Position numbers and translations under genes: made by a program
Shown: in pieces, positions 1-28,832 of the stretch
Numbering within the stretch: position 1 is the first letter of the stretch
Layout of the letters: every line of letters begins with the position of its first letter
Notes under the pieces: generated by a model
Told to the model about the DNA's origin: nothing
Seen by the model: only the letters and a program-made list of their open reading frames with translations
Databases searched by the model: none
NCBI GenBank assembly: GCA_030167145.1
Contig: CP126532.1
Location: 900,001-932,000, forward strand
Length of the DNA stretch: 32,000 nt
Reading direction: 5' to 3'
Origin: Ktedonobacterales bacterium
Lineage (GTDB): Bacteria; Chloroflexota; Ktedonobacteria; Ktedonobacterales; JADMIN01

Positions 1-126
1 AATGTGTTTTGGGGTGATGAGAATCCGGCTTCAAACTATATGCAGGGCGCGATTCAGACGCAGGGTTCGCAGGATGACGTGATGCGCCTGGACGCGATGG
101 CGATGTTCATCTATCTTGGCCAGTGA
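1..126 (+). CDS. 3' end of an unidentified protein-coding gene (partial; start lies outside the window)
   Basis: Frame 1 is open from base 1 and reads NVFWGDENPASNYMQGAIQTQGSQDDVMRLDAMAMFIYLGQ, ending at TGA 124-126. Third-position GC bias matches neighbouring genes. No family can be recognised from 41 residues. Confidence 0.4.
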   Translation, partial: NVFWGDENPASNYMQGAIQTQGSQDDVMRLDAMAMFIYLGQ

Positions 127-191
127 GCTATCTCGGCCAGTGAGCTATCTCGGCCAGTGAGCTATCTCGGCCAGTGAGCTATCTCGGCCAG
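111..191. repeat. 17-bp tandem repeat, about 4.8 copies (unit ctatctYggccagtgag)
   Basis: Copies lie at 111-127 (t at 117), 128-144, 145-161 and 162-178 (the last three identical), with a partial copy at 179-191. The first copy contains the last four codons and the stop codon of the upstream CDS. Confidence 0.95.
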
Positions 192-351
192 GGAGCGCGT
201 TCAGCAGAGTGCCTACGCAATCCAACCCTCTCTAGCCATAGGCGCTTTTCCCGTATACATCAACGACCGCTTCTGTCATACTCGCACAGAACTCTCCATC
301 AGCCCGTTCATGCGCGGGCGATAGTCGGAGGATCTGAGTGGGAGGATAGCA

Positions 352-1680
352 GTGCGGTTAACGAGCGAACAGGTGCTGGCGCTGGCTCCTGATGCCAGTT
401 CCGCCGCCGCTGGAAAGAAGCAGGCCAATCCGCGCGTCTGGCGCAACCTGGGCCAGAACGAGCATGCCGCCTGGGGCGAGTGCCAGGGCAGCGCGGTGTA
501 TCAGGTGCGCGTGGAGCTAGAGACCTTCACGGTGAAATGTACCTGCCCCAGCCATAAGTTCCCTTGCAAGCACGGCCTCGGCCTGCTGCTGCTGGCCGCC
601 GATGGCAAGACTGTGCCCGCAGCGGAGCCGCCCGAATGGGTCGCCTCGTGGCTGGCCAAGCGCGCCGCGACCGAAAGCGCCAAACGCGAAAAAGTGGCGG
701 AATCGGCGAAAGCGGCAGACGACGCGCCTACCAAAGAGCAGCTCAAGCGGATCGAGAAGCGCGAAAATCTTGTCGCGCACGGCCTGGATGCGCTGGACCT
801 CTGGCTTAGCGATTTGATGCGCAATGGGCTTGCGGGACTCGAAGGGCAGCCCGTCACTTTTTGGGAGCGGCAGGCCGCGCAGATGGTGGATAGCCAGGCC
901 CAAGGTATCGCGGGCCGGATTCGTAGCATGGCGGAAATTCCCGGCTCCGTTCCGGACTGGCCCGCGAAGCTGCTCGGCCAGCTTGGCCGCCTCGCGCTGC
1001 TCAGCCACAGCTACCGCCGTGGTGATGCGCTGGACCCCGCGCTGCGCGAAGATGTGCGCCAACTGACCGGCTGGACGCTCAAAGAGGACGAGGTTACGGC
1101 GCGCGGCGAGACCGTGACCGATGACTGGCTGCTGCTGGGCCAGCACATTGAGGACGAAGAGCGGGGCAAGGCGCAGCGCACCTGGCTGCTCGGCGTGCAG
1201 AGCCTTCGCCCGGCGTTGATCCTCCAGTTCTCGTTCATGAACCAGCCGCTCAAGGAGATGCTGGCGCCGGGTATCCGGCAGCATGGCGATCTCAGCTTCT
1301 GGCCGGGGGCAGCGCCGTTGCGCGCGCACTTCTCCGCACGCTCCGCTGATACCGCTCCCATTAGCGCGTTGCCCGGCCATGAGAGCATCGAGGTGTTTCT
1401 GGGCAGCGCCGCTGCCCTGCTGGCGCGCCAGCCCTGGCACGAGCGCTTTTTGTGTTCCCTGCGCAACGTTACCCCCATCTACGACATCACGCGCGACCGC
1501 TGGCACATCCGCGACTCAACCGGCGCGGCCTTACCGCTGCGCTCCGGCGGCCACTGGCGCTTGCTCGCCATATCTGGCGGCGCGCCCGTGGATTTCGCGG
1601 GCGAATGGGATGGCGAAACGCTGCTTCCCCTGGGTGCGTTGGCCGCGAACGAGTATTACCTGCTAGGGCAAGGAGCCTGA
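352..1680 (+). CDS. SWIM zinc-finger family protein (YehQ-like), first gene of the five-gene module
   Basis: GTG start at 352, 6 nt after GGAGG (341-345). SWIM CxCx(n)CxH signature VKCTCPSHKFPCKHGLG. The N-terminus EQVLALAPDASSAAAGKK is typical, as I recall, of SWIM proteins encoded next to DUF5691 and AAA genes. Confidence 0.85.
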   Translation: MRLTSEQVLALAPDASSAAAGKKQANPRVWRNLGQNEHAAWGECQGSAVYQVRVELETFTVKCTCPSHKFPCKHGLGLLLLAADGKTVPAAEPPEWVASWLAKRAATESAKREKVAESAKAADDAPTKEQLKRIEKRENLVAHGLDALDLWLSDLMRNGLAGLEGQPVTFWERQAAQMVDSQAQGIAGRIRSMAEIPGSVPDWPAKLLGQLGRLALLSHSYRRGDALDPALREDVRQLTGWTLKEDEVTARGETVTDDWLLLGQHIEDEERGKAQRTWLLGVQSLRPALILQFSFMNQPLKEMLAPGIRQHGDLSFWPGAAPLRAHFSARSADTAPISALPGHESIEVFLGSAAALLARQPWHERFLCSLRNVTPIYDITRDRWHIRDSTGAALPLRSGGHWRLLAISGGAPVDFAGEWDGETLLPLGALAANEYYLLGQGA

Positions 1681-1683
1681 ATC

Positions 1684-3249
1684 ATGCACGATCTGCTCAC
1701 GACGGCTCTGGTCGGCACGGCCCAGGCGGGAGCCGTCAGCCCAACCACTGATACCGAAGTTGATACACTAACCGAACAATTACCAGCAGATGACGCCGAG
1801 CGCAGGCTGCTGCTCACCGCTGGCGCGGCTGCAATGTATGCGCTCGCGGGCTACGTGCCCGAAATGCTGGCCGCGACTCCCGAACCCGCTTCGGCTGAGA
1901 CGCTGCCAGCATGCTCACCTGGCACGACAGTGCTACTTCGCGACCTACTCGCCAACCGTCAAGGCGTCCTGCTGCCAGAGGCGCTGGCGCGTCTGCAAAA
2001 TGCCGGGCTGCGCCTGCCGCCCGACCTGCTGCCGCTGGCGCTGGACGTGCGCGAACCAGCGTCACGCGGCGCACTCATCCCCGTGCTAGGCGAGCGTGGC
2101 CGCTGGCTCAGCCAGTTCAATCCGGCGTGGTCGTGGGCGCGGGATGCGCTGACCACCGGCGAAGCGAATATGCCCGCTGCGGCTGAGACCGTCTGGCAGG
2201 AGGGCACACCTGGCCAGCGCCACGAACTGCTCAAGCTGCTGCGCGCCACCGATCCCGCGAAAGCGCGCGACTGGCTGCAAGCCGCCTGGAAGCAAGAGAA
2301 AGCCGATGTGCGACGCGAATTCCTCTCCGCGCTCAGTATCAACCTTGGCCCCGATGACGAGGCATTCCTCGAAACGGCGCTGGATGACCGTTCCACCACG
2401 GTCCGCGACACCGCCGCCAATCTGCTGATGCGGTTGCCTACCTCAGCCTTCATCGCGCGGATGATCGCCCGTGCTGATCCGCTGCTCAGCTACGCCGATG
2501 GCGCGCTCGACGTGGAGATCCCGTCCAGCCTCGATCCCGCCGCCAGTCGCGACGGCGTCCCCGGCGATTCGCTGAATGATGCCGGTCACCGCGTCGGCCT
2601 GCTGATCTATCTGTTGGGCCACGTGCCACCCGTACACTGGCAGGAGCGCTTCAGCCTCGATCCCGCCGCCTTTGTGGCTGCCGTAGAGAACTCCCTCTGG
2701 CCGCTAGAAGCCTTGGAAGGCCTGGCCCGTGCCGCCGCGCTGTTTGACGACCAGGAGTGGGCGCTGCCACTGTGGCGCTACTGGTCCGCGCCGCGCAAGG
2801 CCGACACCGAGCGCCAGGTTGAGCTGCTCGGCGAGCTACCGTTATTGCTCGCGCCGCACGTGCCGCACGCCGAATGGGAAGCATGGGCGCTGCATATGCT
2901 GGCGGAGGCGAGCGATGACCAGCGCGAACTGTATGGCGACATCTTCGCGTGGTCTCCGAGCCAGTGGAGCCGCGACTTTGGCGACGGCTATCTCGCCGCG
3001 CTACGCGCGTTCATCGCTGGCCTCAATAAGAAATCGAAGAGCGCTGAGCCGTGGGATGACACGCTCGAATCTGCCGCGCTGGCGCTGCCGCCGGAGTGCT
3101 TCGCCGCCGCGCTTGCGTCCTTCGATCTGCCCGAAGACAACACCACCTGGCAGATCCAGAACTTCCGCCGCCAGCTCGATGCGTTTGCCGATACCATCCG
3201 CGTCCGCCAGCGCATCTACGACGAGATTCCAGTCGCAGATGTCCGCTAA
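1684..3249 (+). CDS. DUF5691-like protein (helical-repeat protein of the SWIM/AAA/VWA module)
   Basis: ATG lies 3 nt after the SWIM stop and is preceded by AAGGAG. The product is 521 aa, Leu/Ala-rich and looks like a helical repeat protein. The N-terminus MHDLLTTALVGTAQAG and the position after the SWIM gene match my recollection of DUF5691 proteins. The family call rests on memory, not a search. Confidence 0.65.
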   Translation: MHDLLTTALVGTAQAGAVSPTTDTEVDTLTEQLPADDAERRLLLTAGAAAMYALAGYVPEMLAATPEPASAETLPACSPGTTVLLRDLLANRQGVLLPEALARLQNAGLRLPPDLLPLALDVREPASRGALIPVLGERGRWLSQFNPAWSWARDALTTGEANMPAAAETVWQEGTPGQRHELLKLLRATDPAKARDWLQAAWKQEKADVRREFLSALSINLGPDDEAFLETALDDRSTTVRDTAANLLMRLPTSAFIARMIARADPLLSYADGALDVEIPSSLDPAASRDGVPGDSLNDAGHRVGLLIYLLGHVPPVHWQERFSLDPAAFVAAVENSLWPLEALEGLARAAALFDDQEWALPLWRYWSAPRKADTERQVELLGELPLLLAPHVPHAEWEAWALHMLAEASDDQRELYGDIFAWSPSQWSRDFGDGYLAALRAFIAGLNKKSKSAEPWDDTLESAALALPPECFAAALASFDLPEDNTTWQIQNFRRQLDAFADTIRVRQRIYDEIPVADVR

Positions 3250-3274
3250 AGAAGATGGGAAGAGGGGAGTGAAA

Positions 3275-3835
3275 ATGAATGACCTCACCGAGCTAGCCGA
3301 GCTAATCCGCGCAAGAAATGCCATAGACACACTCATCGCGCGGCGCGTTGGCCGCCCAGCGCATATCGGCCATGTCGGCGAATTTCTTGCCTGCGCCATC
3401 TTCAATATCCAACTGGAAGAATCCGCCACAGCCAGGGCAATTGATGGGCGTTTTGTAGATGGCCCGCTCGCCGGACGCACCGTCAATGTTAAATGGTTCA
3501 CTAAGCACGATGGTCTGCTGGACATCAACGAGGATACGAGCCTCGATTACTATCTCGTGTTTAAAGGGCCCAAAACACCGCCAGCCTCATCTCGCGGAGC
3601 CATTGCGCCGTGGGTCATCGAGTATGTCTTCCTCCTCGACGCTCAGCAGTTGTTGGAGAATCTGCGCTGTCGAAATGTCAAAATCCAGCGACACGGTGCT
3701 ACTGGCATCGCCAGCGCGCTATGGGAGCAAGCCGAGATTTACCCGGTCCAACGCAACATAACGTTGATGCTCACGGAGACTCAGCGCGCTCAGCTCGCCC
3801 TGTTTAGTTTGACTATCCCAAAGGCTGGCACATGA
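3275..3835 (+). CDS. Hypothetical 186-aa protein inserted into the module; unassigned family, possible nuclease-like fold
   Basis: The ATG at 3275 is preceded by AGGGGAG (3263-3269). The upstream part of track ORF 2729-3835 overlaps the DUF5691 gene in another frame and was trimmed. G+C is visibly lower than in the flanking genes. The segment HIGHVGEFLACAIF...AIDGRF...TVNVKW loosely resembles an E...D...xK nuclease-type core, but this is unverified. Confidence 0.65.
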   Translation: MNDLTELAELIRARNAIDTLIARRVGRPAHIGHVGEFLACAIFNIQLEESATARAIDGRFVDGPLAGRTVNVKWFTKHDGLLDINEDTSLDYYLVFKGPKTPPASSRGAIAPWVIEYVFLLDAQQLLENLRCRNVKIQRHGATGIASALWEQAEIYPVQRNITLMLTETQRAQLALFSLTIPKAGT

Positions 3836-4310
3836 TGAACATTTACGTATTTCGTCAACTCCGGCCACTCCGGCCACTCGTGGGGCAGACAGTTCCGTCT
3901 TCCCGCACACGAGGTGCGCAAAATCGGCCACTCCGGCCACTGCTCGCAGGCGCAAGTCGAAAAATCGGCAGAATCGGCAACTGTCCTCATGCATGCAACA
4001 CCAAACTGTGGCGAAAACGGCGAAAAATCTCCCCCCACTTCTCGTCGTCTCCGACCATCTACCGTCATTTACTCCCCATGCACCCACAAAAAACGGCCAT
4101 ATCGGCCACTTCGCTCACCGGACAATTCTATGTTCGGCTACTGCCGAAGGTTGTAATCGCGGCGAAAACGGCGAAAATTCCACGGACAAATACGGCTATT
4201 CACAGTCACATCACCCCATACGCCCAGCAAATATCGGCCATATCGGCCAGTGACCACACTCGCTAGTCAGAGCAGAAAGGAGCGCGACGTTCTGTCGCGA
4301 CAGACAACCC
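3836..4310 (+). other. 475-nt C-rich, G-poor non-coding spacer inside the operon (candidate rut-like region, ncRNA or protein-binding array)
   Basis: No convincing CDS is present. Three plus-strand ORFs and two minus-strand ORFs overlap here because stop codons are scarce. A hand count of 4021-4260 gives C=85, G=41 of 240 nt, about 52% G+C, clearly lower than the flanking genes by eye. Confidence 0.5.
3861..4250. repeat. Array of seven 9+9-nt direct-repeat dimers in two sequence classes
   Basis: The sites are: 3861-3878 ccggccact x2; 3924-3941 tcggccact/ccggccact; 3963-3980 aatcggcag/aatcggcaa; 4010-4027 ggcgaaaac/ggcgaaaaa; 4094-4111 cggccatat/cggccactt; 4161-4178 ggcgaaaac/ggcgaaaat; 4233-4250 atcggccat/atcggccag. 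Spacing between sites is irregular, 39-84 nt. Confidence 0.85.
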
Positions 4311-5441
4311 ATGACCAACCAGAAGAAAGCGCCCGCCACCGTCATCGCCGATGCGCCCGCCCTCGAAAGCGTACTGCGGCAGCATGCCGAGCAGCAGTTC
4401 GCCGAAGAGTTGGCAGAACTGGTGAAGATTGACGACCGCCAGCGCCCACCCAACTGGAAGCTCTCGCCCTGGGCCGTGCGCGCCTACCTGCTCGGCGGCA
4501 AGCTCCCCAATGGCTTCACTGTCAGCCCCAAGTATATCGGCAACGCGCGGCTGATCGAGATTGCCGTTGCCACCCTCGCCACTGACCGCGCCCTGCTGCT
4601 CTACGGCGTTCCGGGGACCGCAAAATCGTGGACAAGCGAGCATCTCGCCGCCGCGATCACCGGCGACTCGACGCTGATGATTCAGGGCACGGCAGGCACC
4701 GATGAAGCGGCGATCCGCTATGGCTGGAACTACGCGCGGCTGCTGGTTGAGGGGCCGTCGCCCGCCGCGCTGGTCGTCAGCCCGATGATGCAGGCCATGC
4801 AATCGGGCAATATCGCACGCATCGAAGAACTGACCCGCATCCCCGCCGAGGTGCAGGACACGCTGATCACCATCCTCTCCGAAAAGACGCTGCCCGTGCC
4901 GGAGCTTGGCATGGAGGTGCAGGCGCGCAAAGGCTTCAACGTCATCGCCACAGCCAATAACCGCGACAAAGGCGTGAACGAACTATCCAGCGCGCTCACC
5001 CGCCGCTTCAATACCGTGGTTCTGCCCACACCGGCGACGATGGACGAGGAGATAGACATCGTCGAGCGGCGCGTCGCCAGCCTGGGCCGCGCGCTGGAAC
5101 TGCCCGCTGAGAAGCCCGCGCTCGAAGAGATCCGCCGCGTCGTCACGGTCTTCCGCGAACTGCGCGCGGGCGTCACCGAGGACGGCAAGACCAAGGTCAA
5201 GTCGCCCAGCGGCACGCTCTCCACCGCGGAAGCCATCTCGGTGATGACCAACGGCCTGACGATGGCGGCGTACTACGGCGATGGACTGCTACACGCGGGC
5301 GACCTCGCCGCCGGTCTCACCGGCGCGATCATCAAAGATCCGGTGCAGGATCGCGTTGTGTGGCTGGAATATCTGCAAACCGTGGTCAAAGAGCGCGACG
5401 GCTGGAAAGACCTCTACCGGGCGTGCCATGAGGTGCTGTAG
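4311..5441 (+). CDS. MoxR-class (AAA_5-type) AAA+ ATPase, YehL-like
   Basis: Walker A LLLYGVPGTAKSW, a Walker B-like IARIEELTR segment, and ATANNRDKGVNELSSALTRRF (sensor/Arg region). There is no in-frame start codon between the stop at 4251-4253 and the ATG at 4311. Confidence 0.9.
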   Translation: MTNQKKAPATVIADAPALESVLRQHAEQQFAEELAELVKIDDRQRPPNWKLSPWAVRAYLLGGKLPNGFTVSPKYIGNARLIEIAVATLATDRALLLYGVPGTAKSWTSEHLAAAITGDSTLMIQGTAGTDEAAIRYGWNYARLLVEGPSPAALVVSPMMQAMQSGNIARIEELTRIPAEVQDTLITILSEKTLPVPELGMEVQARKGFNVIATANNRDKGVNELSSALTRRFNTVVLPTPATMDEEIDIVERRVASLGRALELPAEKPALEEIRRVVTVFRELRAGVTEDGKTKVKSPSGTLSTAEAISVMTNGLTMAAYYGDGLLHAGDLAAGLTGAIIKDPVQDRVVWLEYLQTVVKERDGWKDLYRACHEVL

Positions 5442-5443
5442 CA

Positions 5444-7765
5444 ATGAGCGTTCATATTTTCGGCGTCCGGCACCACGGCCCCGGCTGCGCCCGCGCCCTG
5501 CGCGCAGCGCTTGAGGCGCTTCAGCCGGATATCCTTCTCGTCGAAGGGCCGCCCGACGCAGAGGGCGCGCTACCGCTGCTGACACACGAGGCGATGAAGC
5601 CGCCGGTTGCGCTGCTGATCTACGTTCCTGACCAGCCTAGCCGCGCCGTCTTCTATCCGTTCACCACCTTCTCACCGGAATGGCAGGCGCTCGGCTATGC
5701 GCTGGGCCGGGGCATTCCCGCGCGCTTCATGGATCTACCGCAGGCAATCCAGCTTGCGCGCGAGCCGGTCGCGGAGGAGCAGGCTACGCCGCCCGCCGAT
5801 GATTTGCCCGCCGCCGCCGATAGCGGACACCCGCACAGCGCGCCCACGGACGAGAAACCGGCCATATCGGCCACTGCTACCCCGCCGCCGGACCCACTGG
5901 CGATGCTCGCCGAAGCCGCTGGCTACGACGACCACGAACTCTGGTGGGAGCAGCAGATCGAGCAGCGCCGCGACTCCACCGGCGTCTTCGAGGGCATCTT
6001 CGAGGCGATGAGCGCCCTGCGCGCCGACCTCACCCCGCGCGACGACGAAGAGGCGCAGCGCGAGGCTCACATGCGCAGCAGCATTCGCGCCGCCGAAGGC
6101 GAGGGATTCGCGCGTATTGCCGTCGTCTGTGGCGCGTGGCATGCCCCGGCGCTGGCCCAGCGCGACGACGCGAAGGCCGACACGGCACTGTTCGCCAAGC
6201 TCAAGCGCGTCAAAGTCGAGACGACCTGGATTCCCTGGACCAACTCGCGCCTGGCCTATCGCAGTGGCTACGGCGCGGGCATCACCTCGCCGGGCTGGTA
6301 CGGCCACCTGTGGGCCGCGCCTGACCGTGTGCCCATCCGCTGGGCGACCCAGGCGGCGCAACTGCTGCGCGGCGAAGGGCTGGACGCCTCATCGGCCAGC
6401 GTGATCGAGACGGTGCGGCTGAGCGAGGCGCTGGCGGCGATGCGTGGGCTGCCGATGCCGGGCATGGCTGAGATGCGCGAGGCAATCCAGACGGTGCTCT
6501 GCCACGGCGAAACGGCACCGATGCAACTGATTCGCGATAAGCTGGAGATCGGCGAGGCGATGGGCGAAGTACCGCCAGAGGCACCCGCCGTGCCGCTGCA
6601 ACGTGACCTCGACGCGCAGGCGCGGCGGCTCACACTGAAGCTCACCGCCGAAATCAAGGACTACGACCTGGACCTCCGCAAAGACACCGACCGCGTACGC
6701 AGCCAGTTGCTGCACCGGCTGGGAATGCTGGGCATTGGTTGGGGAGAAGAACAGCACACCTACGGCAAGCTCGGCACATTCCACGAGAAGTGGCGACTTC
6801 AATGGCAGCCCGAATTCGCTGTCGCGCTGATCGAGGCGAATATCTGGGGCAATACCGTCGCGTCGGCAGCCGCCGCGCGCACGCGCCAGCTTGCCACCGT
6901 CGCGCCCGATCTGCCCGCGCTCACGGCGCTGCTGGAGCGCGCACTGCCCGCCGATCTGCCCGATGCCTTGGAGGATTTGCTTGAACGGGTACGCGACCGC
7001 GCCGCCGTCTCCAGCGATGTGCGCCACCTGATGGACGCGCTGCCGCCGCTGGCGCGTATCGTCCGCTATGGCGACGTGCGCGGCACCAAGGCCGAGCGCG
7101 TTACGCCGGTGATAGACGCGCTGTTCGAGCGGGCGCTGGTTGGGCTGCCCGGCGCGTGCCTCTCGCTCGACGACGACGCGGCGACGGCGATGGTCACGAG
7201 CATAGACAACGTGCAGGAGACCGTGAGCATGCTCAATCGCGATGACCAGCGCGCGCCCTGGCTCGCCACGCTGCGCCTGCTGGTAGACCGCGATGGGGTG
7301 CATGGGCTGGTGCGCGGACGCTGCTGCCGCCTGCTGCTGGAGATGCGTGCGCTGGCAAGCGAAGAACTGCGGCGGCTCGCCGGTCTGGCGTTCTCGCCGG
7401 TCAATCCGCCTGAGCAGGCCGTCGATTGGATTGAAGGGGTGCTGCGCGGTCCCGGCCTGAAGCTGTTGCAACAGGATGACCTCTGGCGCGCGCTCGACGC
7501 CTGGCTCGCTAACCTCGCGCCCGATATCTTCGTCACGCTGCTGCCACTGTTGCGCCGCGCGTTCTCTGGCTTCTCCGCGCCGGAGCGTCGCCAGATGGGC
7601 GAGAAGGTCAAGCTTCTCAGCGTAGAGGAAGCCGCAGGGACGCTGGGTGTGCGACCGTCTGGCGAAGGCGGTGCTACACACGGGCCGATTGCACAAGAGC
7701 GTGCGAATACCGTGCTGCCCGTGCTGGCGCAGATTTTGGGGGTGAACTATGAACCCGGCAACTGA
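5444..7765 (+). CDS. DUF5682-like large protein, YehM-like
   Basis: ATG lies 2 nt after the AAA stop. The product is 773 aa. The N-terminus MSVHIFGVRHHGPGCARALRAALEALQPDILLVEGPPD matches my recollection of DUF5682 and YehM-type proteins. A low-complexity Pro/Ala linker is present (about 5750-5900). Confidence 0.8.
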   Translation: MSVHIFGVRHHGPGCARALRAALEALQPDILLVEGPPDAEGALPLLTHEAMKPPVALLIYVPDQPSRAVFYPFTTFSPEWQALGYALGRGIPARFMDLPQAIQLAREPVAEEQATPPADDLPAAADSGHPHSAPTDEKPAISATATPPPDPLAMLAEAAGYDDHELWWEQQIEQRRDSTGVFEGIFEAMSALRADLTPRDDEEAQREAHMRSSIRAAEGEGFARIAVVCGAWHAPALAQRDDAKADTALFAKLKRVKVETTWIPWTNSRLAYRSGYGAGITSPGWYGHLWAAPDRVPIRWATQAAQLLRGEGLDASSASVIETVRLSEALAAMRGLPMPGMAEMREAIQTVLCHGETAPMQLIRDKLEIGEAMGEVPPEAPAVPLQRDLDAQARRLTLKLTAEIKDYDLDLRKDTDRVRSQLLHRLGMLGIGWGEEQHTYGKLGTFHEKWRLQWQPEFAVALIEANIWGNTVASAAAARTRQLATVAPDLPALTALLERALPADLPDALEDLLERVRDRAAVSSDVRHLMDALPPLARIVRYGDVRGTKAERVTPVIDALFERALVGLPGACLSLDDDAATAMVTSIDNVQETVSMLNRDDQRAPWLATLRLLVDRDGVHGLVRGRCCRLLLEMRALASEELRRLAGLAFSPVNPPEQAVDWIEGVLRGPGLKLLQQDDLWRALDAWLANLAPDIFVTLLPLLRRAFSGFSAPERRQMGEKVKLLSVEEAAGTLGVRPSGEGGATHGPIAQERANTVLPVLAQILGVNYEPGN

Positions 7766-8969
7766 GGCGAAACACGATAGCGAACGACTGAAGCGCTGGC
7801 GGTTGGTGCTGGGTGGCGCTTCCGCCGAGGGATTGGGCATGAGCGGCGGTGGGGGGCGTGGCGGAGGCGGCAGCGACGGTATGCCCGGTCTCAGCGCCGA
7901 GGAAGCGGCGATGGATGACGCGCTGGCCGCGCTCTACGACGAAGAGCGCTCCGCCGGGCTGGGCGGCTCGTCGCCACGTGTGGCGCGCTGGCTAGGCGAC
8001 ATCCGCCAGTATTTTCCCACGTCGGCCGTCCGGGTAATGCAAAAAGACGCGCTGGAACGCCTGAACCTGACGCAGATGCTGATGGAGCCGGAGCTTTTGC
8101 AGACCGTCGAGGCCGATGTGCATCTGGTCGCCACGCTGCTCTCGCTCAGCAAGGTCATGCCCGATAAGACCAAGGATACGGCACGGCAGGTGGTCCGCAA
8201 GGTAGTCGAAGAGTTGGAGCGCAAGCTCGCTAATCCGCTGCTGCAGGCGGTGCGCGGCAGCCTGAACCGCGCCACGCGCACCAGCCGCCCCCGTGCGGGC
8301 GAGATAGACTGGGATCGCACCATCCGCGCAAACCTGAAGAACTATCTGCCCGACCGCCAAACGATCATCGCCGAAAAGCTCGTCGGCTACGGCCACAAGC
8401 GGTCCTCGCTGCGTGATGTGGTGCTCTGCGTGGACCAGAGTGGCTCGATGGCGACCTCGGTGGTCTATTCCGGTATCTTCGGCGCGGTGCTGGCCTCGAT
8501 CCGCGCTATCGCGACGCGCATGGTGGTCTTCGATACCGCCGTGGTGGACCTGACGGACGACCTGCACGATCCCGTGGATCTGCTCTTCGGCACGCAGCTT
8601 GGCGGCGGCACCGACATCAATCGCGCCCTGGCTTATTGCCAGCAGATTATCACCCGTCCGGCGCAGACGATTCTGGTGCTGATCACTGATCTCTATGAAG
8701 GCGGCAACGAGAAAGAGATGCTCAAGCGCGCGGCGGACCTGATCGGTGGTGGGGTGAAGATGGTCTGCTTGCTGGCGCTGAACGACCAGGGCACGCCGAG
8801 CTTCGATTCAGGCAATGCTGCCAAGCTGGCGAACATGGGCTGCGCAACCTTCTCCTGCACGCCGGATCTGTTCCCCGACCTGATGGCCGCCGCCATCCAG
8901 CGCCGCGACCTGGCGCTGTGGGCCGCGCACAACGACATCGTCACCGTGCGGGCCGGAGAAGACGCATGA
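7749..8969 (+). CDS. VWA domain protein (CoxE-like VWA type, YehP-like)
   Basis: The ATG overlaps the previous gene by 17 nt and is preceded by GGGGGTG. The N-terminus contains RWRLVLGG and a Gly-rich tract. MIDAS motif VLCVDQSGSM (DxSxS). Confidence 0.85.
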   Translation: MNPATEAKHDSERLKRWRLVLGGASAEGLGMSGGGGRGGGGSDGMPGLSAEEAAMDDALAALYDEERSAGLGGSSPRVARWLGDIRQYFPTSAVRVMQKDALERLNLTQMLMEPELLQTVEADVHLVATLLSLSKVMPDKTKDTARQVVRKVVEELERKLANPLLQAVRGSLNRATRTSRPRAGEIDWDRTIRANLKNYLPDRQTIIAEKLVGYGHKRSSLRDVVLCVDQSGSMATSVVYSGIFGAVLASIRAIATRMVVFDTAVVDLTDDLHDPVDLLFGTQLGGGTDINRALAYCQQIITRPAQTILVLITDLYEGGNEKEMLKRAADLIGGGVKMVCLLALNDQGTPSFDSGNAAKLANMGCATFSCTPDLFPDLMAAAIQRRDLALWAAHNDIVTVRAGEDA

Positions 8970-16230: not shown

Positions 16231-16851
16231 CTACTTCGTCTTGGTCTGGCTCACATACAGGCACGACTTGGCGGGATACTCATTAGTGGTCGTAACGCCC
16301 GGATTGACGAACAGCGAGACCACATTCGTGTCACCTTGGTTGTACGTGGCGCTGACAATCGTCGTGACCAGATCAGAGTTATGGTGATTCTTGTCCACCA
16401 GAATCGCATGCGCGTGGACGATGGTGAACACGCCACCAGTCTGGGTGCCGATATAGTGGATGAAGTCGTTGTAGCTGACCTGGATGTGCTGATTGGGGTT
16501 GTGCGGCGCGCCCTTCACCCCTTCAACGATCTCGACGCAGTGGCCGCTTGGCGAGTGGCAGCCAGGGACGATGGAGTTCGCCAGCCGGGGCTTGTCACGC
16601 GCCAGCACCACGCCGCCCATCGCACCCACTGCCGCGACCGCGCCGCCCGCCGCGACCGCCGCGCGCAGGAAGCGCCGCCGGCTCGTCGGGTCGGCCAAAC
16701 CTCTTGCGCGAGCCTGGCGCGCCTGCCCATCCGCTGGTGGCGGATTCAGCCATGGGTTCGTCGCCGGATCGCTATTGGGGGCATTCCGCTCCGGCGGAGA
16801 CGGGGGAGACCATTGATTGGTCTCTTCAGGATTGCCGTTGTTCTGATCCAT
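16231..16851 (-). CDS. Tat-signal secreted His-rich protein, paralog A (unknown family)
   Basis: The ATG at 16851 is preceded by GAAGTGGAG. The twin-arginine motif TSRRRFLRAAV is followed by a hydrophobic h-region AAGGAVAAVGAMGGVVLA. A 57-aa extension precedes the RR. The mature domain contains HC...PHNPNQH...VHAHA...KNHHN...SC. Confidence 0.75.
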   Translation of the reverse strand: MDQNNGNPEETNQWSPPSPPERNAPNSDPATNPWLNPPPADGQARQARARGLADPTSRRRFLRAAVAAGGAVAAVGAMGGVVLARDKPRLANSIVPGCHSPSGHCVEIVEGVKGAPHNPNQHIQVSYNDFIHYIGTQTGGVFTIVHAHAILVDKNHHNSDLVTTIVSATYNQGDTNVVSLFVNPGVTTTNEYPAKSCLYVSQTKTK

Positions 16852-17145
16852 GGTATGATGACTCCACTTCATCAGGCTACGCATGCACTACTATTGCATG
16901 CCACACAAGCGCATGCGAATAATGGTAGCCTGCCACTACTGCTAACGGACCAAAGCATATCTAATAACAGTCGCCCAGACAATCCACCACTACATAATGG
17001 CTACTCGTTATAGCGAACCAATGGGAATCAGCATGGGGGAAACATTCTACGGAGCAAGGAAGGCAAGGAGGATACAGTACGCAAAGGATGCCGGATAGGC
17101 CTGGAGTTATGTGCATCGGGCGGATGTTTTCGAGCATATGCCAAT

Positions 17146-17190: not shown

Positions 17191-17826
17191 CTAGGGGCGA
17201 GTTGCGCTCAGCGTCTGGCTGACATACAGGCACGACTTGGCCGGATACTCATTCGTCGTGGTGACGCCGGGGTTGACGAGGAGCGAGACCACGGCCGTAT
17301 TCCCTTGCTCGAAGTCGGCGCTGATGATGGTGGTGATCAGATCGGGGTTATGATGATTCTTATCCACCAGAATCGCGTGCGAATGCACGATGGTGAACGT
17401 ATTGGTACCGATGTCATAGGTGCCGATGTACGTGATGAAATCGTTGTAGCTGACCTGAATGTGCTGGTTCGGGTTTTGTGGCGAGCCTTTCACCCCTTCG
17501 ACGATCTCGATGCAGTGGCCGCTAGGTGTCACGCTACCTGGCAGGATGGAGTTCGCCAGCCGGGGATGGTTCCGGGCCATGACCACGCCACCCATCGCAC
17601 TCACCGCCGCGACCGCGCCGCCCGCTACCACCGCTGTGCGCAGAAAGCGCCGCCGGCTCGTCGGATCCGACACGCTCCCTAACGCGGTATGCGTCTCCGG
17701 TTCGGCGGCTTGTGGCGGATTCAGCCACGGATTAGTCGCCGGATCGTTATTTGGAACGGTTCGCTCCGGCGGAGACGGGGGAGACCATTGATTGGTCTCT
17801 TCAGGATTGCCGTTGTTCTGATCCAT
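17191..17826 (-). CDS. Tat-signal secreted His-rich protein, paralog B
   Basis: The ATG at 17826 has the same GAAGTGGAG leader as paralog A. Contains TSRRRFLRTAV followed by an h-region. By eye it is roughly three quarters identical to paralog A at the protein level, and the first 65 nt of the two CDSs are identical. Confidence 0.75.
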   Translation of the reverse strand: MDQNNGNPEETNQWSPPSPPERTVPNNDPATNPWLNPPQAAEPETHTALGSVSDPTSRRRFLRTAVVAGGAVAAVSAMGGVVMARNHPRLANSILPGSVTPSGHCIEIVEGVKGSPQNPNQHIQVSYNDFITYIGTYDIGTNTFTIVHSHAILVDKNHHNPDLITTIISADFEQGNTAVVSLLVNPGVTTTNEYPAKSCLYVSQTLSATRP

Positions 17827-18189
17827 GTTACGATGACTCCACTTCCAAAGGCTGCGCATGGAACAATGTGTCCCCGCCAGCCACCTCGTCACTGCCACTT
17901 AGAACGACCCTGAACAATGGCACTGGCGCGTACCATGATACGCTGGCCACCCATCCGTTCCGGGCTGCGCGCTACTCACAAACCTGAGCAACGATATGAG
18001 CCTGCGTGGCGCTCATGCGCCTTCGATTATTTTGCCATCAGTAACAACGGGCCTTGGGAGATTTCATAACAGTCCATTCGGACTACCCCCCCCTAATAGT
18101 CCTAGGGCGAGACGCTCTAAAATCACGAAGAAGCATTGCCTGCGAGCGTCTTGCGCTTCCATTGGGAGTGAAATGTCACGCTGCGAGTG

Positions 18190-20288: not shown

Positions 20289-20318
20289 TCCGCGCGGCGC
20301 GACACCTGCATGCTCTTG

Positions 20319-20362
20319 GCCGGCCCCGGCGTGCGATGCGGTTCGCATGCTTCGGGGCCGGC
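20319..20362 (+). terminator. Long GC-rich stem-loop after clpP (terminator-like)
   Basis: gccggccccg (20319-20328) pairs with cggggccggc (20353-20362), a 10-bp stem. The 24-nt loop contains an inner atgcg/cgcat stem. No strong T-tract follows. Confidence 0.35.
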
Positions 20363-20423
20363 GTTCGCGCTCTGGTGGTGTGCGATCCGCGCGACGCGCA
20401 TGCGGATTGAAGGGAGACGGCCG

Positions 20424-21113
20424 ATGACGGCTCGCAACCCAGATCCGCTGCGCGGGCGGATCGTCTATACGCTGTTTGAGACGCTCTACCGCAACCGTCT
20501 GCTCTACTGGTTCGCCAGCACGATTCCGTTCGCTGGGCAATGGCGCACCTGGCAACGGCTGGTGATTCCGCACTTGCGTGGCCACGACGTGCTGGAGGTT
20601 GGCTGCGGCATCGGCACACTGGTCGCCGACATGGTGCGCGCGGGCTATGTCTGCACGGCGGTGGATCGCTCGCCGCAGATGGTCGCCGCCACGCGCGCGC
20701 GCCTGCGCCGGCATGGGCTGAGCACAACGAGCGTGTTCGAGGCCGATGTGCGGCAACTGCCTTTCGCTGGCGCATCGTTCGACTCTGTGGTCAGCACCTT
20801 TCCGACAGATTACATCTTCGATCCGGCGGCGCTCAGCGAGATTACGCGCGTGCTGCGTCCAGGTGGACGGCTGGTGATCGTCATCGGCGCGGAGATTTTG
20901 CCGGTCAACGCGCTGACGCTGCCGTTCGTCGGCATCCAGACGCTGGTGTACGGGCGCAGAGCACGCACGGAGCCGAAGACTGCTGAAACTTTGCCCGTGG
21001 CGAAGGAGAATCTGCTGCTAGCGTTGATGGCGCGTGCAGGCTTGCATGGACGGCGTGAGGGGATGCGTGGCCCATTCTGGGAAGCGACCCTGTATATTGG
21101 TGAGAAATCTTAG
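20424..21113 (+). CDS. Class I SAM-dependent methyltransferase
   Basis: Trimmed to the ATG at 20424, which is preceded by AAGGGAG. Motif I VLEVGCGIGTL, plus DRSPQMV, LPFAGASFDSVV and LRPGGRLVIV. Confidence 0.85.
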   Translation: MTARNPDPLRGRIVYTLFETLYRNRLLYWFASTIPFAGQWRTWQRLVIPHLRGHDVLEVGCGIGTLVADMVRAGYVCTAVDRSPQMVAATRARLRRHGLSTTSVFEADVRQLPFAGASFDSVVSTFPTDYIFDPAALSEITRVLRPGGRLVIVIGAEILPVNALTLPFVGIQTLVYGRRARTEPKTAETLPVAKENLLLALMARAGLHGRREGMRGPFWEATLYIGEKS

Positions 21114-28794: not shown

Positions 28795-28832
28795 CCTGAC
28801 GGCATGACCTGACGGCATGACCTGATGACATG
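28795..28832. repeat. 13-bp tandem repeat, about 2.9 copies (cctgacggcatga)
   Basis: 28795-28807 and 28808-28820 are identical; 28821-28832 is degenerate (cctgatgacatg). Located in the intergenic region upstream of coaE. Confidence 0.7.

Follow-up and report, generated by a model that had tools for sequence, protein, structure and literature searches.

The DNA considered here is a stretch of 32,000 nucleotides (nt) from a Ktedonobacterales bacterium (assembly GCA_030167145.1, contig CP126532.1, positions 900,001 to 932,000), referred to below as the window, and our subject is a piece of about 1.06 kb that separates two members of a cassette of five co-oriented genes. The cassette spans positions 352-8969 and follows the canonical order, as judged by Pfam: a SWIM zinc-finger gene (352..1680; PF04434), which comes first here as in the conserved order of other copies, a DUF5691 gene (1684..3249), a MoxR-type AAA+ gene of the AAA_5 family (4311..5441), a DUF5682 gene (5444..7765) and, as the last, a gene for a CoxE-like VWA protein (7749..8969), all on the + strand. 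Two recorded entries, OJF49_000808 and OJF49_000809, match proteins of the window exactly. Between DUF5691 and AAA the insert leaves a gap of 1061 nt (3250-4310); the remaining junctions of the operon are tight, at +3, +2 and -17 nt. The gap holds a gene for a protein of 186 amino acids, here called p186 (3275..3835, + strand), preceded by a Shine-Dalgarno-like AGGGGAG (3263..3269, + strand), and then a spacer of 475 nt that runs up to the AAA start at 4311. A preliminary description of this locus, made from the sequence alone, had placed the DUF5691 stop at 3249, the ribosome-binding motif, the ATG at 3275, the AAA start and the 475-nt gap correctly, and had also noted the tight junctions elsewhere in the operon.

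An insertion at a normally coupled gene junction

Scanning one genome per species yielded 80 loci with an orthologue of the AAA gene, about 50 of which also cover SWIM and DUF5691 directly upstream. None of the 80 carries p186. Every one of the more than 50 further copies whose sequence spans this junction has DUF5691 and AAA side by side, without p186 between them, and the 30 junctions that we examined base by base all lie between -4 and +3 nt, in agreement with the earlier statement that the two genes are neighbours in other versions of the module. In 26 copies from Chloroflexi, the DUF5691 stop and the AAA start either share 4 nt, as ATGA or GTGA, or stand at most 3 nt apart. The nearest insert-free relatives (loci L214-L216, with AAA 91% identical in amino acids) have the 4-nt overlap, as does the Escherichia coli copy, which also lacks p186.

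The DUF5691-p186 arrangement was found in only four short Logan contigs from close relatives, where the p186 protein shows 85-89% identity and its gene 88%. JGI metagenomes yielded no close relatives. A search with full-length AAA for further insert-bearing relatives returned only insert-free genomes, at 93% identity or less; a search with the N-terminal part of AAA found no fragment above 88% identity, and the right half of the spacer was not recovered from relatives. The comparison of orthologous operons thus agrees with what had been supposed from the sequence: the 1.06 kb is evidently a lineage-specific accessory insertion at a normally coupled DUF5691/AAA junction, confined to one Ktedonobacterales lineage.

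The insert also stands out by composition, as the preliminary description had seen. Its G+C content is 0.551 over 3250-4310, compared with 0.638 for the whole window, and the stretch of 1061 nt with the lowest G+C anywhere in the 32 kb begins at 3214, the median of such stretches being 0.644. For 4021-4260, where a hand count had given about 52%, we compute 0.525. The p186 gene has a G+C content at third codon positions (GC3) of 0.62, against 0.75-0.83 in the flanking genes. We take the insert to have been acquired horizontally.

Comparison of the junction with loci L214-L216 and L001-L004, together with the G+C minimum, puts the inserted DNA at about 1.07 kb (3232..4310, + strand). Its left edge lies just past ATTCCA (~3232), and its right edge between ~4300 and the ATGACCAAC that is shared with other AAA genes. 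By the same comparison, the last five to six codons of DUF5691 (from ~3232, ...VADVR*; LPDAR* in the relatives) are evidently new sequence made by the insertion; in insert-free relatives the protein ends in ...EEIPL*, overlapping the AAA start. Open reading frames (ORFs), Pfam and a repeat search gave no transposase, integrase, attC site, clear terminal inverted repeat or convincing target duplication at the insert, just as had been reported before. The edges carry a weak direct repeat, GTCGCAGA (3232-3239) and GTCGCGACAGA (4294-4304). We considered an insertion sequence (IS), a transposon and an integron cassette and rejected them all, since there is no hallmark gene and no terminal or flanking repeat other than this weak one.

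The inserted gene encodes a predicted PD-(D/E)XK endonuclease

The preliminary description had called p186 an orphan, and this does not stand. A word-indexed search returned 227 homologues at 48-57% identity. An exhaustive profile search brought 1148 clusters (50% identity) at an expectation value (E) of 1e-3 or better, 336 of them at E <=1e-30, most of the proteins being 176-190 amino acids long; the family comprises at least 1148 clusters. The Pfam model of DUF6998 (PF22522) matches p186 at 19.6 bits (E 9e-4), below its gathering threshold of 27 bits, and 43 of 50 relatives of p186 match it at E <=0.01 (best 1e-6), over the predicted catalytic core at residues 31-97. Because the matches are weak and p186 itself falls below the Pfam cut-off, we regard the family as a distant sister of DUF6998 rather than as a member. 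A literature search found no paper mentioning DUF6998. The insert is therefore a real but fairly ordinary lineage-specific acquisition, not an orphan novelty, and it is not, as had been suggested, something undescribed in kind. Most of what the preliminary description observed holds, and part of its interpretation does.

Longer proteins of the p186 family include fusions (P0257, P0264, P0252, P0267, P0327) with UDG-superfamily, DUF6946 (in either order), DUF7662 and Cro/C1-type helix-turn-helix domains, and one protein of 481 amino acids (P0241) carries two copies of the family domain.

An AlphaFold (AF2) model of p186, built on an alignment of 50 sequences, reached a pLDDT of 89.5 and a pTM of 0.86. 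When it was compared by Foldseek with the Protein Data Bank (PDB), the best matches were NhoI and Eco15I-Ntd (8q5n, 8rpx, 8q5o; E 3e-4 to 4e-3, TM 0.5-0.67), with PvuII second (E 4e-3, TM 0.42-0.51). NhoI and Eco15I are m5C-dependent endonucleases of the BisI family, which is characterised by cutting only GCNGC that is multiply methylated. The model shares the core alpha-beta-beta-beta-alpha-beta fold with solved PD-(D/E)XK members. Across the family alignment D57 is invariant, and E36, N71 and K73 are each conserved in at least 90% of sequences. In the model, E36 sits in helix 31-43, D57 at the start of strand 58-60, and N71-x-K73 in strand 69-75.

Active sites of this class are built from a glutamate in the core helix, the aspartate of 'PD' that starts strand 2, and a (D/E)xK motif whose acidic residue may be replaced by Q or N; in that last position NhoI has QVK and Eco15I has QIK (PMC11347163). 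The E36, D57 and N71-x-K73 set of p186 fits this accepted E/(P)D/(D,E,Q,N)xK arrangement. The loosely nuclease-like appearance noticed in the preliminary description thus finds a counterpart in the predicted structure, which points to the BisI/PvuII fold with a conserved E...D...NxK set. Because a confident fold match coincides with conserved catalytic residues in the expected elements, we predict, on the good evidence of the model, that p186 is an active PD-(D/E)XK nuclease with a complete candidate catalytic set.

Genes of the p186 family stand alone among defence genes

Eight independent contexts of p186 homologues were examined. Their neighbours include nSTAND, SIR2 and PLD genes, an AAA_23/AAA_21 ATPase with a UvrD helicase, a GmrSD gene 45 nt away, an NgoFVII/PLD helicase, ApeA, Mrr together with Prim-Pol and TraG, and an OLD-type nuclease. 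One context (L090) is an ordinary chromosomal setting, unlike the remaining defence or mobile neighbourhoods. In none of the eight does a gene of the cassette stand beside the homologue, and no DNA methyltransferase gene is adjacent to a p186-family gene, either there or in the window. The sole methyltransferase of the window (20310-21113) is of the small-molecule type, Methyltransf_11, and lies 16 kb away. Membership of p186 in a type II restriction-modification system was rejected, since an adjacent matching methyltransferase is missing from the window and from all eight contexts.

We take p186 to be most likely a solitary, methyltransferase-independent (type IV-like) restriction-type nuclease directed against foreign DNA. 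It would be a Mg-dependent DNA endonuclease working alone, and most likely a modification-dependent one; the dependence on modification is a guess, made because no methyltransferase accompanies the genes of the family. A search of the BFVD viral structures gave no match to p186. The p186 proteins form a large candidate restriction family, with a predicted restriction-type fold and a candidate catalytic set, encoded in defence islands with no methyltransferase and missing from PADLOC. If it is true that one member cuts modified DNA, the whole family gets a name.

The spacer contains tandem doublets

The remainder of the insert is the spacer (3836..4310, + strand; C 34%, A 27%, G 21%, T 18%). 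Because T is so scarce, all three + frames are largely open. The longest ORF (3832-4266) has a flat G+C content across the three codon positions (GC1/2/3 of 0.54/0.52/0.57), and for this reason we consider the spacer non-coding. The preliminary description had taken it for a long structured element. Folding z-scores of -1.67 and -1.77, hairpins of insignificant energy and the lack of an Rfam match give this no support.

What the preliminary description overlooked is that the spacer contains seven tandem doublets of 9 nt; every one lies on the + strand and follows the pattern CGGC-N5-CGGC (one with TGGC). Doublets of period 9 occur at 12.6 per kb in the spacer and at 0.7 per kb elsewhere, an 18-fold enrichment, and there are none in the spacer at periods 7, 8, 10, 11 or 12. 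In order, all on the + strand, they are S1, ACTCCGGCC, in 2.4 copies (3856..3880); S2, AAAATCGGCCACTCCGGCCACTGC (3920..3943); S3, which with its conserved 5' flank reads GCGCAAGTCGAAAAATCGGCAGAATCGGCAACT (3950..3983, the doublet itself at 3961-3983); S4, TGGCGAAAACGGCGAAAAATC (4009..4029); S5, AAAAACGGCCATATCGGCCACT (4089..4110); S6, GCGGCGAAAACGGCGAAAATTC (4159..4180); and S7, AAATATCGGCCATATCGGCCAGTGA (4228..4254). S1 contains the motif GGCC-N5-GGCC, of which the window has six occurrences where 1.8 would be expected; spacer doublets account for four of the six. The spacer also includes a degenerate duplication (4010..4249, + strand), in which 4010-4108 and 4161-4249 are 69% identical (E 2e-8). 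Each copy, of about 100 nt (S4+S5 and S6+S7), has a GGCGAAAA doublet at its start and a CGGCCATAT doublet at its end. The positions of the doublets fit a period of 10.65 bp (Rayleigh R 0.83, p ~0.03, post hoc), which puts them approximately in helical phase. Such a phased array is an unusual cis-element and one that is accessible to experiment.

Most of the spacer cannot be aligned with that of relatives whose p186 gene is 88% identical in nucleotides. Two doublets are conserved there: identity reaches 94% over 33 nt in the S3 block, above that of the gene itself, and 80% over 44 nt in the S1 block. The Logan contigs of the four relatives all end at an S3-type doublet, as if, we infer, a repeat or a variable array broke the assembly there. 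Neither doublets nor a comparable tail were found near distant p186 homologues.

A weight matrix made from the seven doublets was run over 1.05 Mb of fetched DNA. The top scores all fell in the insert and its relatives, except for three coding sites of the operon, at 5855 in DUF5682, 3363 in p186 and 691 in SWIM. The first of these, a perfect A-type doublet AAACCGGCCATATCGGCCACTG (5855..5876, + strand; codons KPAISAT), scores as high as the best spacer doublets. The sites at 5855 and 691 are at least partly coding coincidences, because other species have weaker counterparts at orthologous offsets; one such weaker site, at the offset corresponding to 5855, is present in locus L016. Around the site at 3363 lies a block of 27 nt within p186 (3353..3379, + strand; codons RPAHIGHVG) that is 89% identical to spacer positions 4221-4247 and whose second CGGC is broken by a synonymous change in the relatives. 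We tested whether the spacer arose by decay of a p186 copy and rejected this, since the similarity is confined to these 27 nt. Nor is it a CRISPR array, its repeats being 18-25 nt long, of three sequence types and separated by gaps of 19-59 nt. A metagenome scan for paired doublets yielded isolated hits in GC-rich DNA, at least 120 in number and attributable to chance; screening of these hits gave no second array, p186 or cassette.

Two metagenome sequences deserve separate mention. One (L211; Ga0302125_10068835, 1-1187) consists entirely of 9-nt tandem repeats in ATGGCCGAT and ATGCCCAAT variants; it reads (H-I-G)n on one strand, with mostly synonymous variation between units, and is unrelated to the cassette, having surfaced only through its match to the doublet pattern. 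The other (L150, 4300-5100) includes several hundred bases of near-pure poly-C, probably an artefact of sequencing or assembly.

A related array lies upstream of the operon

A second array precedes the cassette. It consists of 5.1 tandem copies of a 17-nt unit, CTATCTCGGCCAGTGAG (111..196, + strand), and some 155 nt separate it from the SWIM start. Its first unit comprises the last codons and the stop of the upstream gene (...IYLGQ*). The core of the array, TCGGCCAGTGA, is present exactly in S7, and matches to it with at most one mismatch number seven in the window, compared with 1.7 expected. S7 and the 17 nt that follow it align to two of the 17-mers (p ~0.01). Nothing aligns beyond this, and we therefore discarded the notion that the spacer is a copy of the upstream region of the operon. 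The motif is common to the regions 5' of the operon and 5' of AAA, and is missing from the window's other intergenic regions, roughly a dozen. Repeats of 9 nt upstream of SWIM in 25 relatives showed no convincing enrichment (0.46 per kb, versus 0.23 per kb in coding DNA). In another Ktedonobacteraceae copy of the operon (L015, ~2887-2912), a 9-nt tandem repeat, GGCACAAGT/GGCACAAAT in 2.8 copies, lies about 215 nt upstream of SWIM and recalls the GGCA-N5-GGCA type of doublet seen in S3.

Just before AAA stand an SD-like GAAAGGAG (4275..4282, + strand), 28 nt upstream of the ATG; a hairpin CGCGAC/GTCGCG of insignificant energy (4283..4299, + strand); and, overlapping the hairpin, a perfect 14-nt palindrome, TCTGTCGCGACAGA (4291..4304, + strand), which ends 7 nt before the AAA start. 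Because the insertion broke the coupling of AAA to DUF5691, we propose that GAAAGGAG and the hairpin or palindrome, which may form a new ribosome-binding or operator region, would restore an independent start, or control, for AAA-DUF5682-VWA.

As judged from the sequence, the doublets and the 17-nt array are most likely putative protein-binding (operator-like) sites, and this is the weakest step of our interpretation. The spacer tail would then evolve as non-coding DNA, by insertions, deletions and local duplication. We lean to operator-like sites over junk because two non-coding regions share a short motif, and the evidence for this choice is thin. The choice has a serious competitor, which we hold to be a tentative though quite conceivable reading: the spacer may be a functionless, fast-evolving leftover of the insertion, with doublets and duplications produced by replication slippage in C/A-rich DNA. 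Such an origin would agree with the poor alignment of the spacer between lineages that share 88% identical p186 genes, with the 6- and 7-nt repeats that the relatives have at the same place, with the unrelated short tandem repeats in other intergenic regions of the window, and with the lack of any structure, Rfam match, promoter or terminator signal. It does not readily explain why the S3 block is more conserved than the gene and the S1 doublet is kept, why seven doublets share CGGC-N5-CGGC on a single strand with period 9 alone, why they are helically phased, or why their motif recurs in the array at 111-196.

A probable passenger rather than a component of the cassette

We propose, with a probability of roughly 60%, that the insert is a horizontally acquired, stand-alone predicted nuclease gene, lodged in a permissive operon junction and followed by a putative cis-acting DNA tail. 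p186 would be a passenger that borrows the transcription of the operon and no part of the MoxR-VWA machine. Other cassette copies host unrelated genes at their AAA/DUF5682 or DUF5682/VWA junctions. These comprise PIN toxins with their partners (L055, 7068-7974 and 10211-10986; L061, 5971-7021 and 9204-11140), a Uma2 nuclease (L071, 6489-9393), a 23S-rRNA-IVP protein (L087, 2760-3258), an FHA protein (L054, 7065-7605), a DUF4241 protein (L045/L046, ~7090-7870), a UDG (L085, 7041-7870), a class-I methyltransferase (L038, 1934-2777) and further inserts (L021, 7122-11542; L030, 7080-10179; L032, 4379-6497). The genes inserted at cassette junctions also include one for a secreted peptidase-like protein and one for a MarR-like regulator, the latter accompanied by a flavin monooxygenase-like gene. 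Because the cassette habitually hosts passengers and p186 elsewhere is never found with the cassette, the passenger reading seems to us better than that of an integrated effector. Outside the insert-bearing lineage the DUF5691/AAA junction does not vary, and the other two junctions accept passengers, a difference that should be useful for dissecting the cassette.

Several observations weigh against this proposal. A profile search of all PDB sequences, with E up to 10, does not retrieve BisI, NhoI or Eco15I, and a comparison of the p186 profile with the PvuII sequence was negative. The methyl pocket of NhoI, His139-Val140, has no evident counterpart in p186, and the C-terminal alignment of the family (KIG-ATSV...W..AEIYP) shows no conserved (H/R)(V/I/T/M) pair, both as judged by sequence alignment. 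The family is absent from PADLOC and PHROGs and, by tblastn, from plasmid and phage collections. As to the tail, the phasing and the likeness to the 17-mers were both recognised post hoc, at p ~0.01-0.03, and short tandem repeats occur in other intergenic regions of the window as well. Finally, p186 is co-oriented with the operon and tightly packed behind DUF5691, a promoter scan detected no promoter of its own, and the gene has been kept across ~12% nucleotide divergence, which is compatible with a functional link to the cassette.

Such a link was the earlier suggestion: p186 and the spacer would customise the cassette as an integrated accessory, be it an effector, a sensor or a regulator, for example a nuclease output under MoxR/VWA control. 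We regard this as improbable, yet keep it in consideration because p186 sits tightly within the operon, is separated from DUF5691 by 25 nt and shares its orientation, and has a good Shine-Dalgarno sequence, and because the DUF5691-p186 arrangement is retained in related genomes. It would also suit the lack of a separate p186 promoter, the recurrence of the doublet motif upstream of the operon and within cassette genes, and the accessory nature of the cassette itself, a horizontally spread island (in 34 of 5426 E. coli genomes). The idea that the insert customises the module is disfavoured, because the homologues are solitary in eight unrelated contexts, never with cassette genes, and because the cassette tolerates unrelated passengers at other junctions of its other copies. 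It is further opposed by the more than 50 junction-covering copies that lack the insert, the nearest ones among them, and by the fact that the insertion breaks a translational coupling conserved everywhere else.

A more elaborate version, which seems to us unlikely, has the doublets and the 17-nt array as operators of one lineage-specific DNA-binding factor, perhaps encoded by the cassette itself, such as the SWIM protein, which would co-regulate the nuclease and the cassette. If this were true, the insert would have made a new composite of the widespread cassette, with joint expression or joint control of a restriction-type nuclease and an AAA+/VWA machine.

Coding, RNA and footprint readings of the spacer

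We also considered that the spacer might be decayed or disrupted coding sequence, either a low-complexity N-terminal extension of AAA or a small basic protein encoded by the ORF at 3832-4266. Here one can point to the period of 9, which equals three codons in all repeats, to the AAA frame, which from 3837 onwards is interrupted by just one stop, a TGA at 4252, and to the ATG of the ORF, which overlaps the p186 stop as ATGA and is conserved in the relatives, where the ORF is called as a gene. With GGC as a codon, every doublet reads x-G-x-x-G-x, and in one insert-free Ktedonobacterales copy (L011, 4203-4225) a sequence AATCCGGCAACTCCGGCAACTCA, with codons SGNSGNS, lies within the first 15 codons of AAA and matches S1 in 19 of 22 nt. 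Real genes of this DNA, however, have a GC3 of about 0.8, in contrast to the flat GC1/2/3 of the ORF, and the GGC register falls in three different frames. Open frames follow simply from the 18% T. By inspection, substitutions relative to the relatives show no synonymous bias in any frame; Pfam gives no match; and the N-terminal tails of AAA differ by at most ~13 residues among 26 relatives. A coding origin is on balance quite improbable.

No better can be said of a functional RNA, whether it served AAA as a cis-regulatory leader or paired, as antisense or decoy, with the p186, SWIM and DUF5682 mRNAs, in loose analogy to the RNAs of type I or type III toxin-antitoxin systems. What speaks for it are the same-strand matches between doublets and coding sequence at 3353-3379 (24/27 nt), 5855-5875 (20/21) and 683-711 (23/29), and the fact that all 12 matches with a score of at least 14 lie on the + strand, the mean for shuffled spacers being 1.5. 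The coding sites at 691 and 5855 look like coding coincidences, however. The spacer has no match in Rfam 15 up to E 10, and the window none at gathering score; a search for tRNA and tmRNA gave nothing significant. The folding z-scores (-1.67 on the + and -1.77 on the - strand) and the local hairpins in five sub-regions are insignificant, no promoter or terminator brackets the spacer, and the tail is absent at distant members of the p186 family. In type III toxin-antitoxin systems of the ToxIN kind, tandem repeats of ~34-36 nt lie upstream of the gene for an endoRNase toxin, with a terminator between them. The insert shows neither this layout nor the ToxN fold. Its 9-nt doublets are downstream of the gene, there is no terminator and the predicted fold is that of a restriction endonuclease, and we rejected a type III system for these reasons.

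Very unlikely, finally, are the readings in which the doublets are 9-bp target-site footprints of a CGGC-preferring transposon, or in which GGCC-N5-GGCC (SfiI-type) is the recognition site of p186 itself: they could draw on the near-identity of the two halves within each doublet, set against the differences from one doublet to the next, and on GGCC-N5-GGCC being found six times against 1.8 expected, with four in the spacer. Against them stand the lack of a transposase or any IS remnant, the conservation of S1 and S3 across lineages and the non-palindromic sequence of three of the seven doublets; a restriction gene, moreover, would defeat its own purpose if placed beside clustered copies of its target.

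The host cassette and the rest of the window

SWIM, DUF5691, MoxR, DUF5682 and VWA genes occur on one strand and in identical order in more than 50 loci, from Chloroflexi, Planctomycetes, Cyanobacteria and Burkholderiales to E. coli. In E. coli the cassette is an accessory island between gltD and yhcG, present in 34 of 5426 complete genomes. The AAA gene of E. coli N96 (L217, NZ_CM169999.1 531513-550431) shares 73% nucleotide identity with its Ktedonobacterales counterpart. The AAA protein is strikingly conserved across phyla, with 74-88% amino acid identity among the 80 loci (L010-L089), and the rates within the cassette differ: at the AAA loci DUF5691 is 27-50% and SWIM 38-60% identical. A literature search on DUF5691 and DUF5682 found no papers, and a PADLOC scan of the cassette gave only a weak match. 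Identity of the cassette with E. coli yehLMPQ was considered and was unsupported; the close E. coli homologue is the accessory island just described, and the literature was of no help.

Outside the cassette, the window contains ordinary housekeeping genes, among them those for iPGM, ClpP, MutS2, pyruvate kinase, CoaE and a Ser/Thr kinase. Two further features were noticed. Positions 16244-16885 and 17213-17860 form a direct duplication of ~650 nt with 81-89% identity, which corresponds to paralogous minus-strand ORFs (16231-16884 and 17191-17898) without a Pfam match. The intergenic region before the CoaE gene has a perfect tandem repeat of 13 nt, CCTGACGGCATGA, present in 2.4 copies at 28795-28825.

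Comparison with known systems

The findings change no major concept, and the insert is best placed by its likeness to systems already described. As a genetic element, it resembles passenger genes such as solitary type IV GmrSD or Mrr enzymes and toxin-antitoxin pairs: p186 is small, self-contained, of foreign composition and located at a gene junction, and its homologues adjoin GmrSD and Mrr. It differs from them in its 475-nt tail with repeats, which is not seen at distant homologues.

As a predicted enzyme, p186 resembles PvuII in that the model has the same small, homodimeric, beta-class PD-(D/E)XK architecture. PvuII, a type IIP enzyme that cuts CAG^CTG, is accompanied by a methyltransferase and a C-protein, whereas the p186 family has neither in the eight contexts. 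The comparison with the BisI family goes further. Like those enzymes, p186 would be a small PD-(D/E)XK nuclease (~150-190 amino acids) in which an amide replaces the acidic residue of (D/E)xK, QxK in the BisI enzymes and NxK in p186, and in both families the genes are solitary, without a cognate methyltransferase. The two are set apart by an identity of only 13-19% in structural alignments, with no detectable sequence homology, and by the long N-terminal helix of p186 (residues 2-25).

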